Shown here: positions 1-7,150 of the stretch, piece by piece
How positions within the stretch are numbered: the stretch's first letter is position 1
How the letters are laid out: every line of letters begins with the position of its first letter
Virus record (IMG/VR): IMGVR_UViG_2609459794_000001
DNA: 7,150 bases
Direction: 5' to 3' (one strand)
Origin: a virus
Lineage: Duplodnaviria; Heunggongvirae; Uroviricota; Caudoviricetes
Notes under the pieces: model-generated
Database searches by the model: none
Seen by the model: only the letters and a program-made list of their open reading frames with translations
What the model was told of the DNA's origin: nothing
Made by a program: the position numbers and the translations under genes

Positions 1-271
1 GAAGGATATCGTTACTGCGGCGCAGTTCACGATTTTCACGTTCCAGCTCTTTCAGACGCTGACGTTCAGCGGTGGTGAGCCCTCCATCACCGCCCCCGGT
101 ATCCCGCTCATGCTGGCGAACCCAGACACGCAGAGTCTCCGGCGTACAGCCAATCTTTGGAGCAATGGAACAAATTGTCGCCCATTGTGAGTCATATTCG
201 CTCTGACTTTCCAGAACCATACGGACTGCCCGTTGACGGACTTCGGGGGAAAAACGAGTATTTTTAGTCAT
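1..271 (-). CDS. IS3-family transposase OrfA (helix-turn-helix DNA-binding subunit), N-terminal part; 3' end outside window
   Basis: Manual translation of the reverse complement from the ATG at 271..269 gives [30 protein letters not shown]..., continuing open to position 1. An SD-like AAAGAGG sits upstream of the ATG on the minus strand. Not in the ORF track because it is truncated by the window edge. Confidence 0.8.
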
Positions 272-325
272 CCTGTTTACCTCTTTCTCAGGAAGTTTAG
301 TCTCCAGGATTCCCGGGGCGGTTCA
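1..325 (-). mobile_element. IS629-like (IS3 family) insertion sequence, left end only; element continues beyond window start
   Basis: Reverse complement of 271..325 reads as the IS terminus followed by the transposase leader (TGAACCGCCCCGGGAATCCTGGAGACTAAACTTCCTGAGAAAGAGGTAAACAGG then ATG), matching my recollection of the IS629/IS1203 end. The encoded OrfA N-terminus ([30 protein letters not shown]...) is characteristic of that element. The boundary at 325 is placed where the IS-like sequence ends and the phage reading frame begins. Confidence 0.8.
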
Positions 326-734
326 GTACCGCGCTATCGACTTCATTTACGAAGGCAATCAGATAACGTGCGGCGATAAACTGGAGTCCGTGACCGGGAA
401 ATTGCAATTCGACATCAGCAGCCAGTACGACAAGCAACAGGAACATCTGCTGTTTACTCCTCTGTTCAAAGCGGATAACGCCAGAGTTTTCGACCTTGAA
501 GTTGAATCGTCAACTGGAGTTGCGCAGTATGCTGACCGCCTTTTTCTCTCTGCAACCACTGACGGCATCAATTACGGGCGTGAGCAGATGATTGAGCAGA
601 ATGAACCGTTCGTTTACGACAAACGCGTTTTGTGGAAGCGTGTCGGGCGAATAAGGAAAAATGTCGGCTTCAAATTGCGCGTTATCACTAAGTCACCTGT
701 CACTCTCTCAGGCTGCCAGATAAGGATTGAGTAA
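326..734 (+). pseudogene. C-terminal remnant of P22-like tail hub protein (gene 10 equivalent), 5' part separated by IS629 insertion
   Basis: The frame of the 390..734 track ORF (GTG at 390) stays open upstream with no stop all the way to the IS junction at 325/326, so the ORF is a fragment of a larger gene. Its stop overlaps the start of the tail needle gene (TAATG at 732..736), as gene 10 does with gene 26 in P22-like late operons. Assignment to gene 10 is by synteny; I cannot confirm it by sequence recall. Confidence 0.55.
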
Positions 735-1435
735 TGGTTGATTCATCACTGAATGATCCTGTCGTGGTTCAGGCTACGCGCCTTGATGCTTCAATTTTGC
801 CACGCAATATATTCAGCCAGTCTTACCTGCTGTATGTCATAAATCAGGGAGCTGATGTCGGCGCAATTGCCGGGAAGGCAAATCAGGCTGGTCAGGGCGC
901 TTACGATGCCCAGGTAAAAAACGATGAACAGGATGTCGAACTGGCTGATCACGACGCAAGAATCACCGCAAACACAAAAGCGATAAATCTCCTTGAGGTC
1001 AGGTTAACAACCGCCGAAGGGAAGATAGTCGTACTGCGTAGCGATGTTGATTACTTGCTGGATGAGGTTATCGATATTCAGGGGCATCTGGTCACTGTTG
1101 ACCAAAGACTGGATGACGTAGAAAACGATGTCTCTGGCATTAAGAGTGATTACGTATCGAAAACCGTAACAGAATCGCAGTCTCTTGCGTCACCGCTGGA
1201 TGTAAAAACATCATATTCAGTTGATGGAATTCAGGTTGTTGGAGCAAGAAATACCGGATGGACTGCAGCCACAGGTACACCTCTTCTTGGCTCATTCAAC
1301 GCTAACCAGTCATACACTGTCGGCACTACGTACACACAATCCGAAGTCGCAGCTATCGCTACAGGTTTGGAGCAGGCGCGGCAGCGTATTCTGGCGCTTG
1401 AAACAGCACTTAGATTACATGGGTTGATTGACTGA
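734..1435 (+). CDS. Tail needle protein (P22 gp26 family), 233 aa
   Basis: ORF of 233 aa, the same length as P22 gp26 as I recall it. The N-terminus ([35 protein letters not shown]...) resembles the conserved gp26 hub-binding domain. A heptad-like coiled-coil character runs through the middle and the protein ends ...[22 protein letters not shown] lies 7 nt upstream of the ATG. Position between the gene 10 remnant and gene 14 fits. Confidence 0.8.
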
Positions 1436-1890
1436 TGATTACATTCAAACCAACGCGAAACATCGACCTGATAGAAGCTGTCGGAAATCACCCTGACATT
1501 ATTGCCGGAAGCAACAACGGTGATGGATACGACTATAAACATGATTGCCGTTACTTTGAGGTGAACGTGCACGGGCAGTTCGGCGGCATTGTTTACTATC
1601 AGGAAATTCAGCCGCTGACATTCGATTGCCACGCCATGTACCTGCCAGAGATTCGCGGCTTCAGCAAGGAAATCGGGCTGGCGTTCTGGCGATACATTCT
1701 GACTAACACCACCGTTCAGTGCGTCACATCGTTCGCTGCACGCAAATTCCGCCACGGGCAGATGTACTGCGCAATGATTGGCCTTAAGCGTGTCGGAACC
1801 ATCAAGAAATACTTTAAAGGCGTGGATGACGTGACTTTTTACAGCGCCACACGCGAAGAACTAATCGACTTCCTGAATCACGGGAGATAG
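1435..1890 (+). CDS. P22 gp14-like virion assembly/ejection-associated protein, 151 aa
   Basis: ORF whose start overlaps the tail needle stop (TGATG at 1433..1437), indicating translational coupling. It occupies the gene 14 position between the needle gene and the gp7-like gene. Assignment is by synteny only. Confidence 0.6.
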   Translation: MITFKPTRNIDLIEAVGNHPDIIAGSNNGDGYDYKHDCRYFEVNVHGQFGGIVYYQEIQPLTFDCHAMYLPEIRGFSKEIGLAFWRYILTNTTVQCVTSFAARKFRHGQMYCAMIGLKRVGTIKKYFKGVDDVTFYSATREELIDFLNHGR

Positions 1891-1892
1891 CC

Positions 1893-2585
1893 ATGTTATA
1901 TGCATTTAAGCTGGGCAGAAAACTGCGCGGCGAGGAACCTTATTGCCCTGAAAAAGGCGGGAAAGGTGGTAGCTCTGATAAAAGCGCAAAGTATGCCGCA
2001 GAAGCTCAGAAGTATGCCGCAGACCTGCAAAATCAGCAGTTCAACACCATCATGAACAACCTGAAGCCGTTTACTCCTCTGGCTGATAAGTATGTCGGCA
2101 GCCTCGAGAACTTATCGTCTCTGGAAGGGCAAGGTCAGGCACTTAACCAGTATTACAACTCTCAGCAGTACAAAGATCTTGCTGGTCAGGCTCGCTATCA
2201 GAGTCTGGCTGCAGCGGAAGCAACAGGTGGATTGGGTTCCACTGCAACCGGTAATCAGTTAGCAACAATCGCACCAACGCTTGGTCAGCAGTGGCTGTCT
2301 GGTCAGATGAACAACTACCAGAATCTGGCAAACGTTGGGCTTGGTGCTCTGCAAGGTCAGGCAAACGCAGGGCAGACATATGCCAACAACATGAGTCAGA
2401 TTTCGCAGCAAAGTGCGGCTCTTGCAGCGGCAAATGCCAACAGACCATCAGCAATGCAATCTGCTATTGGCGGAGGTGCGTCTGGTGCTATTGCTGGGGC
2501 CGGACTTGCGAAATTAATTGGTTCATCAACTCCGTGGGGGGCTGCGATCGGCGGCGGTCTTGGTCTGCTTGGCTCGTTGTTTTAA
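1893..2585 (+). CDS. Ejection (DNA transfer) protein, P22 gp7 family, 230 aa
   Basis: N-terminus MLYAFKLGRKLRGEEPYCPEKGGKGG, a Q/N/A-rich middle and a Gly/Ala-rich hydrophobic C-terminus (...GGGASGAIAGAGLAKLIGSSTPWGAAIGGGLGLLGSLF) match my recollection of P22 gp7. Length is within one residue of P22 gp7 as I remember it (229 aa). SD GGGAGA lies 5 nt upstream of the ATG. Confidence 0.8.
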   Translation: MLYAFKLGRKLRGEEPYCPEKGGKGGSSDKSAKYAAEAQKYAADLQNQQFNTIMNNLKPFTPLADKYVGSLENLSSLEGQGQALNQYYNSQQYKDLAGQARYQSLAAAEATGGLGSTATGNQLATIAPTLGQQWLSGQMNNYQNLANVGLGALQGQANAGQTYANNMSQISQQSAALAAANANRPSAMQSAIGGGASGAIAGAGLAKLIGSSTPWGAAIGGGLGLLGSLF

Positions 2586-2595
2586 GGGGTAATCA

Positions 2596-3975
2596 ATGGC
2601 TACGTGGCAACAGGGTATTAATTCTGGTGGTTTTCTGGCTGGCATCGGTACGCAAAATGAGAATGCGCCAAAGGCAAGCGACATTAACGCAACGCTTGGT
2701 CTGATCCGCGAAAACAATGAACTGGCTCGCTCAGGTGTAAATAACGTTGGCCTGACCGCGTTACGTGGTCTGGCTGGAGTTGCTGATATTTACAATCAGG
2801 AACAGCAACAGAAAGCTATTAGTGAGTTCAATAAGGTTCACGCTGATGCATGGGCTTCTGGTGATCCATCGGGACTATTTAAGTTTGCCCAGGAAAATCC
2901 AGCGTTTGTTGCACAGGCACAACAGGCGTTTTCCGGTCTTAATGATCAGCAACGCAACGATATGGGCGATTTAGCCATGAGGGCTAACGTCGCTCTTTCT
3001 CAGGGGCCGGAAGCCTACAGTAAATTCATTACTGACAACAAGGACAGGTTAAATCGCGTTGGGGCTAATGCTGACTGGATGATTCAGACAGGTATCCAGA
3101 ATCCAGAGCAGCTATCACACATGCTGACTACTATGTCTCTCGGTGCACTTGGGCCAGAAAAGGCGTTTGCTGTTCAGGACAAGATGGCTGGTCGTGAAAT
3201 TGACAGAGGCAGGCTGGCAGAGACAATCCGCAGCAATCAGGCTGGCGAGGCGCTAACAGCACGTGGTCAGAATATCACGATGCGCGGTCAGGATTTATCG
3301 ATGCAGAGAGCATCAATGAAAGGGTCGGTTGGGAATAATGAGCGTACAGTTCAGTTAGCAGATGGCAGAACTGTAACGGTAGGCGGGAAGCTTCACGGCG
3401 CTGGGGCTAATGCGTTCTACGAAGGTATCGACAACGAGGGGAATATGGTTCGCGTCCCTGCTGGCTCTATTGCCGCTCCGGCTACATCGGCAGCAAGCGC
3501 GCAGAATTACGCAATGAAGAAAGATCTTGATGCAATTTCTGGTGCATCAATTGACGATCTTGGCTTCATGACTGGCATTACAGGCTCTTCAGGTTCTCCT
3601 GCTCTTGGTGCAGATATTCGTAGCCGTGCATCTGGTGGTGATCAGAGGAAACTATACAACGCTGCACAGCGAATCCAAGGAAAGATGCAGAATCAGGGCA
3701 TTGCAGCAGCCAGAGACATGGGGGCATCCGGTATCAACACCGTTGCAGAAGCAAAGATGTATTTTCAAGGTATGCCACAGGTTGATTTCTCAAGCCCTGA
3801 AGCACTGCAACAATCAATGCGCGACATTCAGCAATATACCGACAATTACAACCAGCAATATAACGTTAATGTCGGTAATGGAGGGAAGAAATCATCAATG
3901 CAACAGCCGCCTACTCAGCAATCAGCAGGAGGTAGCTACACGTCAAAATCAGGCATTCAATTTACGGTGGAATGA
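2596..3975 (+). CDS. Ejection (DNA transfer) protein, P22 gp20 family, 459 aa
   Basis: N-terminus [22 protein letters not shown]... and the size (459 aa; P22 gp20 is about 470 aa as I recall) fit gp20. SD AAGGGG lies 6 nt upstream of the ATG. It follows the gp7-like gene and overlaps the gp16-like gene start. Confidence 0.8.
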
Positions 3976-5813
3976 TGAAAGTAACTGCAAACGGTAAGAC
4001 ATTTACCTTCCCTGATGGTACGAGCACGGAAGATATTGGCACCGCCATTGATGAGTATTTTGCTGGTCAGGCTGTTCAGCAACAAACAGTTAATCAGGCC
4101 AATAATGAACCAGCACGTGAAGAACCATCATTGATGCAACAAGCTGGCGATTGGCTCACTGGTGGTCAAAGTGCAGGGCAAATTGCAGAACAGGCTGGTC
4201 GTGGTCTGGTAAACATACCATTTGACGTATTGCAGGGTGGCGCAAGTCTGATTAATGCAATCAGTCAGGGGCTTGGTGGGCCAAAAGTATTGGATGATGT
4301 TTATCGTCCAGTAGACAGACCGACAGACCCCTACGCACAAGCAGGTGAAACAATTGGTGGGTATTTAGTTCCAGGAGTTGGAACGGCAGGAAGCATGGCT
4401 ATTGGATCACTGGCAGAGGCCGCAAATCAGAAAGGCGATTTCGCACAAAATGCAGCTAAAAATGCCGGAGTTAACCTTGCCGCTCAGGGTGTTCTTTCCG
4501 CAGCAGCAAAGGGAATAGGGCGTGGAATAACGGCTATAAAAGGTGATATTGCGCCAGAAGTGGCGAAGAAAATTGCCACATCAGAATCGATGGGCGTGAC
4601 ACCAATGACATCTGATGTTATCCCGCCGAAAAATGCTTTCACTCGCGGCCTTACTCAGGATGCCGAGGGGGCTTTGCTCGGAACAGGCTCAAAGAGAGCG
4701 GAGCAATATGCAACGCGTAGTAAGCTGGTAAGCAATTATTTTGACCGTTTTGGTGAGTACAACCCTGATGATGTGGTGAAATCTCTGACCACCACGTTAA
4801 GGGGGCGGAAGGATGCCGCTGGCGCTGTTATCAATGACGTCACCAATAAAATGGGTAATGCCGCAGTTGATACCACAAATACCATGAATGCTCTGAATAC
4901 AGCGATCGCAAGACAGGAACGACTTGGGACGTCTGCCAATCAAAGCCTGCTTACATCCTTGCGTAACCTACGTGAAGAATTAGCAAACCCTGCAACTGAT
5001 TTGGATGTTACGTTTGATCTCTTGCGTCAGCACAGAACAGCATTTAGATCTAATGTTCAGGGAGATGCTATGGTCTTCCCCAACCAGGCAAAAGCAGCTA
5101 CCAATATGGTAGAGAATGCAATGTCAAAAGACCTTCGTAACGCAGTTGCAAAAAACCTCGGTGCATCAGACGCAGCAAAATACCTTAAAGCAAATTCTGA
5201 TTATGCAAACGTTTATAATAAGGTGCTTAATAAAAACATTGCTAACAAACTCAACAAGGCAAGCAGTGAAGCCAGCCCTGAACTTATAAATACCGTTGTA
5301 TTAAGCAGAAAACCATCTGACGTGAAACGAATATGGAGCGCGCTGGATGATAAGGGGAAAGATGCTATGCGTGCAGCTTACGTCAGCAAAATAGCGGAAA
5401 AGGCCGGGGACTCTCCAGCCAAGTTCATCACTGAAGTTAATAAGCTGAAATCTCAGTCAGGCGGTGAAATTTACAACACTATTTTTTCTGGAAAGCACAT
5501 GAAAGAGCTTGATGCTCTTCATGAAGTTCTACAGCAAACAGCAAGGTCAGACACCGCAAATGTAGTAACTCAGACGGGGCAATCGCAAGCCAACAGGATA
5601 AGGACGATTGGCGCAACTGCGACCCTTGGCGTATCAATGGGGCTTGAGGCTGGTTTTGGTGCAATGATGCGCTTGTATGAGTCCAAAGCAGCAAGGAATG
5701 CTCTCTTACGTCTGGCAAACACTAAAGCTGGAACGCCAGCTTATGAAAGAGCGCTAAATCAGGCTGCTACTGCCGTGCGCCCGCTCTTAGCTAACGAAGC
5801 GACCCGGCAGTAG
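3972..5813 (+). CDS. Ejection (DNA transfer) protein, P22 gp16 family, about 612 aa
   Basis: N-terminus (M)[31 protein letters not shown]... and the size (P22 gp16 is about 609 aa as I recall) fit gp16. There are tandem ATG codons at 3972 and 3975; the first overlaps the gp20 stop (ATGA). A GGTGG SD-like motif ends at 3970, which favours the second ATG (3975) as the true start. Confidence 0.8.
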
Positions 5814-5835: not shown

Positions 5836-6330
5836 TTATTTTATAGTTTTTATGAATTCTTTATTAAATCCCTTAGCTTCTCCGGGGTATCTTCCAAAGA
5901 CAATTTTTATAAAAACAGAAAAAATAAAGATAGCAACGCTTAACAACAGTTGCAGTATCATTGGAACCCAAAGAACTACAGGCTCTATATTCATGAAACC
6001 AAATATTCTTCCGGCGATCATGGCGAAGTACCACACTGTTATCAGCAAACTTAGTGGCATATGAATTACTGATATTACCAATCCAAGAGCATCAGTAATT
6101 CTATTTTCAAATTTTTCAGGAGAAAACTTTTCTTTAAGGTAATTCAGTGCGCAGGCCTCATTCTCTGGATTTTCAGCATTTTTCCCTATAGCAATAGAAA
6201 TCTCAGATATCCTTGATTCAATTCTTTTGCGTTTAATAAAACTAGAAAAAAAGAACCACGCAATCTGCAACCCTATCCCCATAAATAGAGTTGCGGCAAC
6301 TAGCACAGCGTAACTCATAGAATCAGACAC
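5836..6330 (-). CDS. Small inner-membrane protein with three predicted transmembrane helices; candidate SieA-type superinfection exclusion protein (by position)
   Basis: Minus-strand ORF in a strongly AT-rich segment. Three long hydrophobic stretches are visible ([25 protein letters not shown]; [26 protein letters not shown]; [28 protein letters not shown]) separated by charged loops. It is convergent with gene 16, 22 bp away, at the locus where P22 carries sieA. Start is uncertain: GTG at 6330 has AGAGG 5 nt upstream (preferred), ATG at 6318 has no well-spaced SD, and the track's longest version starts at GTG 6402. Confidence 0.6.
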
Positions 6331-6518
6331 ACCAACCTCTTTAGTTTTTCTAGTTACTTTGTCACGATAGGATATGCGAATTGATAAAACTAAATTGCGC
6401 ACATGATAACTCAGTAATAATTGTTAATGAAAACATGATCACCTATATTGCACAAGGCGAAACAGGAAGCATAATCTGGTTTCATGAGTGTGATCACGTT
6501 TGGGTAAATCAAAGTCAA

Positions 6519-6541
6519 GGTGATGCTGCCAACTTACTGAT
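6519..6541 (+). repeat. IS1 left terminal inverted repeat (IRL)
   Basis: Direct read of GGTGATGCTGCCAACTTACTGAT at the start of the IS1 copy. Confidence 0.85.
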
Positions 6542-6573
6542 TTAGTGTATGATGGTGTTTTTGAGGTGCTCCA

Positions 6574-6849
6574 GTGGCTTCTGTTTCTATCAGCTGTCCC
6601 TCCTGTTCAGCTACTGACGGGGTGGTGCGTAACGGCAAAAGCACTGCCGGACATCAGCGCTATCTCTGCTCTCACTGCCGTAAAACATGGCAACTGCAGT
6701 TCACTTACACCGCTTCTCAACCCGGTACGCACCAGAAAATCATTGATATGGCCATGAATGGCGTTGGATGCCGGGCAACTGCCCGCATTATGGGCGTTGG
6801 CCTCAACACGGTTTTACGTCACTTAAAAAACTCAGTCCGCAGTCGGTAA
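6574..6849 (+). CDS. insA: IS1 InsA (transposition inhibitor / N-terminal part of InsAB' transposase), 91 aa
   Basis: GTG-initiated ORF giving [91 protein letters not shown]. This matches IS1 InsA, including the zinc-finger Cys pairs and helix-turn-helix, with a few substitutions relative to the canonical sequence as I recall it. Confidence 0.92.
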
Positions 6850-7150
6850 CCTCGCGCATACAACCGGGCAGTGATGTGATTGTCTGCGCTGAAATGGACG
6901 AACAGTGGGGCTACGTCGGTGCTAAATCACGTCAGCGCTGGCTGTTTTACGCGTATGACAGGATACGGAGGACAGTTGTGGCGCACGTTTTCGGTGAACG
7001 CACTCTGGCCACACTGGCGCGTCTTCTGAGCCTGCTGTCGGCCTTTGAGGTCGTGGTATGGATGACGGATGGCTGGCCGCTGTATGAATCACGCCTGAAG
7101 GGAAAGCTGCACGTTATCAGCAAGCGTTACACTCAGCGCATTGAGCGACA
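6768..7150 (+). CDS. insB: IS1 InsB reading frame (C-terminal catalytic part of InsAB' transposase), truncated by window end
   Basis: Manual translation of the -1 frame from ATG 6768 gives [64 protein letters not shown]..., matching IS1 InsB. The frame is open to the window end. Not in the ORF track because no stop is reached. Confidence 0.88.
6825..6831 (+). promoter_or_regulatory. IS1 A6C programmed -1 ribosomal frameshift motif (insA to insB fusion site)
   Basis: AAAAAAC read directly at 6825..6831 within TTAAAAAACTC near the end of insA. In IS1 this slippery run is the established site of the -1 frameshift that produces InsAB' transposase. Confidence 0.75.

Follow-up and report, generated by a model that had tools for sequence, protein, structure and literature searches.

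The locus and its genes

The analyzed window of 7,150 bp is the whole of draft contig JNMG01000083.1 from E. coli 3-373-03_S3_C1 (assembly GCA_000700225.1; source proteins KDT59081-KDT59083) and holds the distal late genes of a P22/HK620-like prophage (Table 1). The contig ends within IS629 on the left and within IS1 on the right, assembly having halted in repeats on both sides, and the visible prophage DNA is a 6.2-kb block between the two elements. The same stretch, recognized by an exact match of the tail-needle protein, is carried by the Logan assembly of SRR1186753 (L003). No paper was found in a literature search for the contig accession. Isolates of the 3-373-03 series are mentioned in papers on pipolins, self-replicating elements that encode piPolB; the window is without a pipolin gene.

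Table 1. Features of the 7,150-bp window, with coordinates, strand, and basis of assignment
Feature	Coordinates	Strand	Basis
IS629 (IS3 family), left 325 bp	1-325	-	325/325 bases identical to copies annotated as IS629
IS629 left terminal inverted repeat, 25 nt, ending ...CGGGGCGGTTCA at base 325	301-325	.	Match to full copy in L009
Gene 10 3' fragment (P22-like tail hub, "packaged DNA stabilization protein")	326-734	+	Alignment, 135/135 identity, PF11134
Tail needle (P22 gp26 type), full length, 233 aa	734-1435	+	Annotated tail needle in related phages
gp14-like DUF2824	1435-1890	+	Pfam DUF2824
gp7	1893-2585	+	Pfam P22_gp7
gp20	2596-3975	+	Late-operon segment (Pfam basis for 1435-5813: DUF2824, P22_gp7, Inj_translocase, Phage_P22_gp16)
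gp16	3972-5813	+	Pfam Phage_P22_gp16 (precomputed)
sieA-like superinfection exclusion gene, 188 aa, intact	5836-6402	-	Precomputed Pfam SIEA; source name "superinfection exclusion protein A"
IS1 left end, contig stops inside	6519-7150	+	99.7-99.8% identity to E. coli IS1 copies, one named IS1X2 family; Pfam DDE_Tnp_IS1

Downstream of the gene 10 fragment, the order gp26, gp14, gp7, gp20, gp16, and sieA is that of intact relatives; on the upstream side, where gp4 would be expected next to gene 10, lies IS629. The tail needle start overlaps the gene 10 stop (TAATG), and the needle gene has 702 nt, as in the intact prophages L006 and L007. Across the late-operon segment 1435-5813, gene lengths are equal or near-identical to those in the prophage of strain YA-1. 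The exact sieA-like protein of the window was present on 796 contigs in the collection. The IS1 start is ambiguous by 1 bp (6518/6519), with the YA-1 homology ending at ...AAAGTCAAG, and the insertion site is intergenic in YA-1, 116 bp past the sieA-like gene. With IS1 at this site, the regions that come next in relatives, immI and the tailspike gene, are out of view.

The IS629 terminus inside gene 10

The identification of the left element as IS629 in the initial annotation was borne out. Positions 1-325 were identical (325/325) to hundreds of IS copies in E. coli, some of them RefSeq-named "IS3-like element IS629 family transposase", in a comparison that covers 325 of 1310 bp, at the left end only. 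The reference full copy, from enterotoxigenic E. coli (ETEC) 504239 (NZ_CP025859.1, L009:8016-9325), is 1310 bp long with 25-nt inverted repeats, and its left repeat, TCTCCAGGATTCCCGGGGCGGTTCA, equals window positions 301-325, which correspond to the right-hand arm of the repeat pair in L009; the 25-nt repeat beginning TGAACCGCCCCGGG that marks an IS629 end is thus found at the left end of the window. The transposase gene orfA is read from the minus strand, beginning with the ATG at 271-269; the contig stops before its end, and the visible first 90 codons match Pfam HTH_Tnp_1. The late genes lie on the plus strand, the opposite orientation that had been noted before. A programmed -1 frameshift between orfA and orfB is annotated in full IS629 copies elsewhere; the window holds only the 5' part of orfA.

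P22-like homology takes over at the next base. Matches to the phages EC.P3, E212, IME10, CUS-3, HK620, and Sf6 and to E. coli prophages all begin at base 326, and the terminus proposed at 325/326 is confirmed. Alignment to two intact gene 10 copies placed the break at ...GGTTCA/GTACCGCG, the window reading ...GGTTCA/GTACCGCGCT versus ...GATGT/GTACCGCGCT in the intact genes. Gene 10 of strain STEC383 is 1419 nt long (472 codons), and its nucleotide 1011 aligns with window base 326; IS629 hence adjoins gene 10 after nucleotide 1010 of 1419. What is left of the gene at positions 326-734 begins with the third base of codon 337 and continues through codons 338-472 to the stop, TAA. The break coincides with the very last base of the element and is therefore not a chance or assembly effect.

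The translation of 327-734 was identical at 135/135 positions to residues 338-472 of an intact 472-residue gp10 and scored 279.7 bits (cut-off 25) against Pfam PF11134 (Phage_stabilise), over profile positions 335-469 of 469. The gene 10 frame crosses the junction and stays open upstream as far as a stop at 234-236, in agreement with the earlier claim that the frame upstream of the tail needle is open to the IS terminus and that the element sits within a coding sequence. The break is inside gene 10, and the IS boundary is not intergenic. The first in-frame start codon of the fragment is a GTG at 390, with none earlier. A complete gene would have its own start and about 472 residues; in the window the upstream part is IS sequence, and 71% of gp10 is missing from the reading frame. 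Only the last 135 of the 472 gene 10 codons stay joined to the tail-needle and ejection-protein genes. The fragment is an unambiguous homologue of the C-terminal 135 residues of P22 gp10 and Sf6 gp8 (PF11134), and the downstream genes follow the P22 order; unlike these two hub proteins, it is a pseudogene fragment, as is the 114-residue "phage stabilization family protein" called on the contig.

No exact match to the observed junction was present in species-representative genomes or in viral contigs, and none of the complete E. coli genomes carried it. By exact-sequence look-up, the 46-residue open reading frame (ORF) spanning the junction occurred on the source contig alone, and the 114-residue fragment on the source contig and on L005 (Logan SRR16597624_1967) only. 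L005 is no second case of truncation: its bases 1-27 are a Nextera adapter (AGATGTGTATAAGAGACAG) joined to gene 10, so that the same 114-residue ORF arises without any IS, an artefact mimicking truncation.

Simple insertion or edge of a deletion

The window reaches 325 bp into the element, so that its view excludes the second IS end, the first 1010-1013 nt of gene 10, and a 3-bp duplication, if there is one. Ordinary transposition of IS629 into gene 10 would be the most likely origin, with about an even chance of being the true one. A simple insertion predicts an upstream junction ...GATGTGTA/TGAACCGCCCCGGGTTTCC, in which gene 10 nucleotides 1-1013 are followed by the right end of IS629 and GTA is duplicated; the 5' two-thirds of gene 10 and the GTA duplication of 3 bp would then lie on another contig, past the 1310-bp IS629. 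This predicted junction had no exact match in viral contigs.

The protein collection was searched for the missing partner with gp10 residues 1-337 and through the members of fragment clusters. Truncated gp10 proteins were numerous, coming from E. coli, Shigella flexneri, and Salmonella, but an N-terminal gp10 fragment of 3-373-03_S3_C1 was not among them. One candidate, P0186, fits the expected size with 347 residues and was rejected because its sequence continues as normal gp10. The protein collection also lacked all ten chimeric N-terminal products that were guessed by fitting three common N-terminal alleles with a 3-bp duplication, a 4-bp duplication, or contig-cut tails. This negative says little, because the nearest allele of the gene 10 fragment in complete genomes is only 97.3% identical in DNA. 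Contigs of about 5-12 kb from Shigella flexneri encode many gp10 fragments, C-terminal ones of 100-186 aa and N-terminal ones of 320-330 aa, which suggests that gene 10 or its surroundings are commonly interrupted in that species too.

The event looks recent, since the fragment protein does not differ from intact gp10 and the six genes beyond it are as long as in the intact prophage of YA-1. Protein identity and gene lengths argue for recency and do not separate insertion from deletion. The second origin, to which we give a real chance somewhat short of even, is that gene 10 and IS629 meet at the border of a deletion or rearrangement, arising by adjacent deletion or by recombination of one IS629 copy with another. 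In that case the window would show a prophage remnant lying between IS629 and IS1, and the 5' part of gene 10, perhaps with the upstream head genes, would be lost.

The closest parallel to such a deletion is the P22-like prophage remnant in the complete genome of E. coli AH19K002 (NZ_CP196258.1, L001). As in the window, an IS629 in the same orientation lies with its left end against gene 10, whose 3' part leads on to the needle and ejection genes. On the far side, the element meets a terminase gene without its C-terminus (L001 4229-6680), and the flanks are TAG and GCT, showing no target duplication; this is an IS-bounded deletion, to which the head genes and most of gene 10 were lost. Its junction lies 54 bp deeper in gene 10 (corresponding to window 379/380), the prophage is about 96% identical to the window, and its gp20 and gp16 genes are longer. 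From these differences (the 54-bp shift, the deletion, the level of identity, and the longer gp20 and gp16 genes), it represents an independent event.

The precedents point different ways, for in ETEC 504239 (L009 7703-10134) IS629 lies in a gene 20 homologue, with gene fragments on both sides, in an older P22-like remnant. The upstream part of this remnant is fused to a truncated dsdX beside intS and a tRNA-Arg, the IS flanks are ATG versus ATC, and its gene 20 is too divergent in DNA to tell whether the insertion is a simple one. This remnant with its dsdX fusion and the many truncated gp10 fragments recorded from Shigella and E. coli fit a deletion as well, as does the other end of the contig, which is likewise an IS (IS1). 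However, contigs from short-read assemblies are expected to break at IS copies, and such ends have no bearing on deletions. The IS1 copy is located in intergenic DNA, as a plain insertion would be, and the retained genes exhibit no decay. The elementary event is simple transposition, whereas a deletion requires an extra step. Under the deletion origin, the verdict of a defective prophage holds and is strengthened.

Consequences for the phage and for annotation

Gene 10 mutants of P22 fill their heads and then lose the DNA. In the solved tail structures of P22 and Sf6 (PDB 8tvr, 8eap, and 7sg7), the gp10 homologues form the hub, with six copies per tail. [quoted passage not shown] Six protomers assemble sequentially on the adaptor and bear the tailspikes, and the needle seals the structure; P22 gp10 is the orthologue of the Sf6 hub, with about 90% identity among P22-like phages (PMC9728967). 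According to a preprint, gp10 also templates the ejection channel (bioRxiv 10.64898/2026.09.03.749273).

A cut at residue 337 would part the two halves of the docking domain and open the propeller, and gene 10 split at this point would, judging from P22 and Sf6 biology, yield no working hub. Loss of gp10 function can therefore be safely inferred, with the essentiality of gene 10 taken from the P22/Sf6 literature and established P22 genetics. After induction, the prophage would produce at best filled, tailless heads that leak DNA, and no plaques would form unless gp10 were supplied in trans. It is quite likely that gene 10 is inactivated by a genuine IS629 junction and that this prophage copy therefore makes no infectious particles on its own. 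The earlier verdict of a probably defective prophage thus stands insofar as the intact tail hub is lost at this locus through the interruption of gene 10; beyond the locus, it presumes a single gene 10 in the genome.

A second P22-like prophage with an intact gene 10 might supply gp10 in trans and rescue phage production. The gene 10 fragment was matched in 913 of 5426 complete E. coli genomes (about 17%), in some at up to 3 places, and gp10 is highly conserved among P22-like phages (PMC9728967), but the median among genomes with any match is one matching place, the tail-needle allele of the window was found on the source contig and its Logan twin L003 only, and progeny from a rescue would still bear the broken gene 10; we consider this improbable. 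That the junction is an assembly chimera of an IS629 copy and an intact gene 10 is barely credible, for although the contig is short with repeats at both ends, the break coincides exactly with the end of the IS629 inverted repeat, alignment of the IS end with intact gene 10 revealed no common stretch across the break to mislead an assembler, and the Logan assembly of SRR1186753 has the identical junction with 27 bases of the IS.

The further claim in the initial annotation, that the element would be polar on late transcription, is weak. In lambdoid and P22-like phages, transcription of the late genes depends on antitermination by a Q-type antiterminator, and one such antiterminator is annotated in the related AH19K002 prophage. 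A scan of the full IS629 found two terminator-like sites versus 1.2 expected from shuffled sequence, which does not exceed chance, and no promoter-like site; at the IS end in the window, no outward promoter scored above shuffled controls. In E. coli O157:H7 FRIK1275, the terminase gene downstream of an IS629 copy in stx2 is still transcribed, and plaque-forming phage still bearing stx2::IS629 is produced (PMC7430833). The defect of the prophage stems from the broken gene 10, not from polarity.

The stx2::IS629 insertion of FRIK1275 resembles the window in that the same element lies in a late-operon gene of a lambdoid-type prophage (PMC7430833). There, however, stx2 is dispensable and plaques formed, whereas in the window IS629 disrupts the gene for an essential virion part, the host is a non-O157 isolate, and one side of the IS is visible. 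In the two O157 chromosomes that were compared, IS629 is the most numerous recognized IS, and its copy number and location vary by strain (PMC7430833).

The window and AH19K002 provide two independent IS629 junctions of the same orientation, 54 bp apart, in unrelated prophages. It is improbable that IS629 prefers to land in the final third of gene 10 in P22-like prophages, or that hosts repeatedly keep the block of needle, ejection, and sieA genes after IS-mediated loss of head genes. If the block is kept, superinfection exclusion useful to the host would be the reason for its retention. The chance of a second junction within 54 bp is about 9% under uniform insertion, a value that allows for the detection range, as a junction had to lie in the 1175 bp of prophage sequence in the query to be found; two junctions at this distance therefore do not exceed chance.

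IS629 is familiar and active in E. coli, and prophages that turn cryptic through IS insertions or deletions are textbook cases. The IS629-broken gene 10 is real but of an ordinary kind, and neither its parts nor their combination is new. Its value is one of annotation, in that the prophage is to be scored incomplete, and it is of little importance beyond that. Since a draft contig that stops within IS copies does not tell a merely interrupted prophage from a largely deleted one, calls of a defective prophage from a single contig need neighboring contigs or long reads. Even with the prophage dead, the retained sieA-like gene could still benefit the host.
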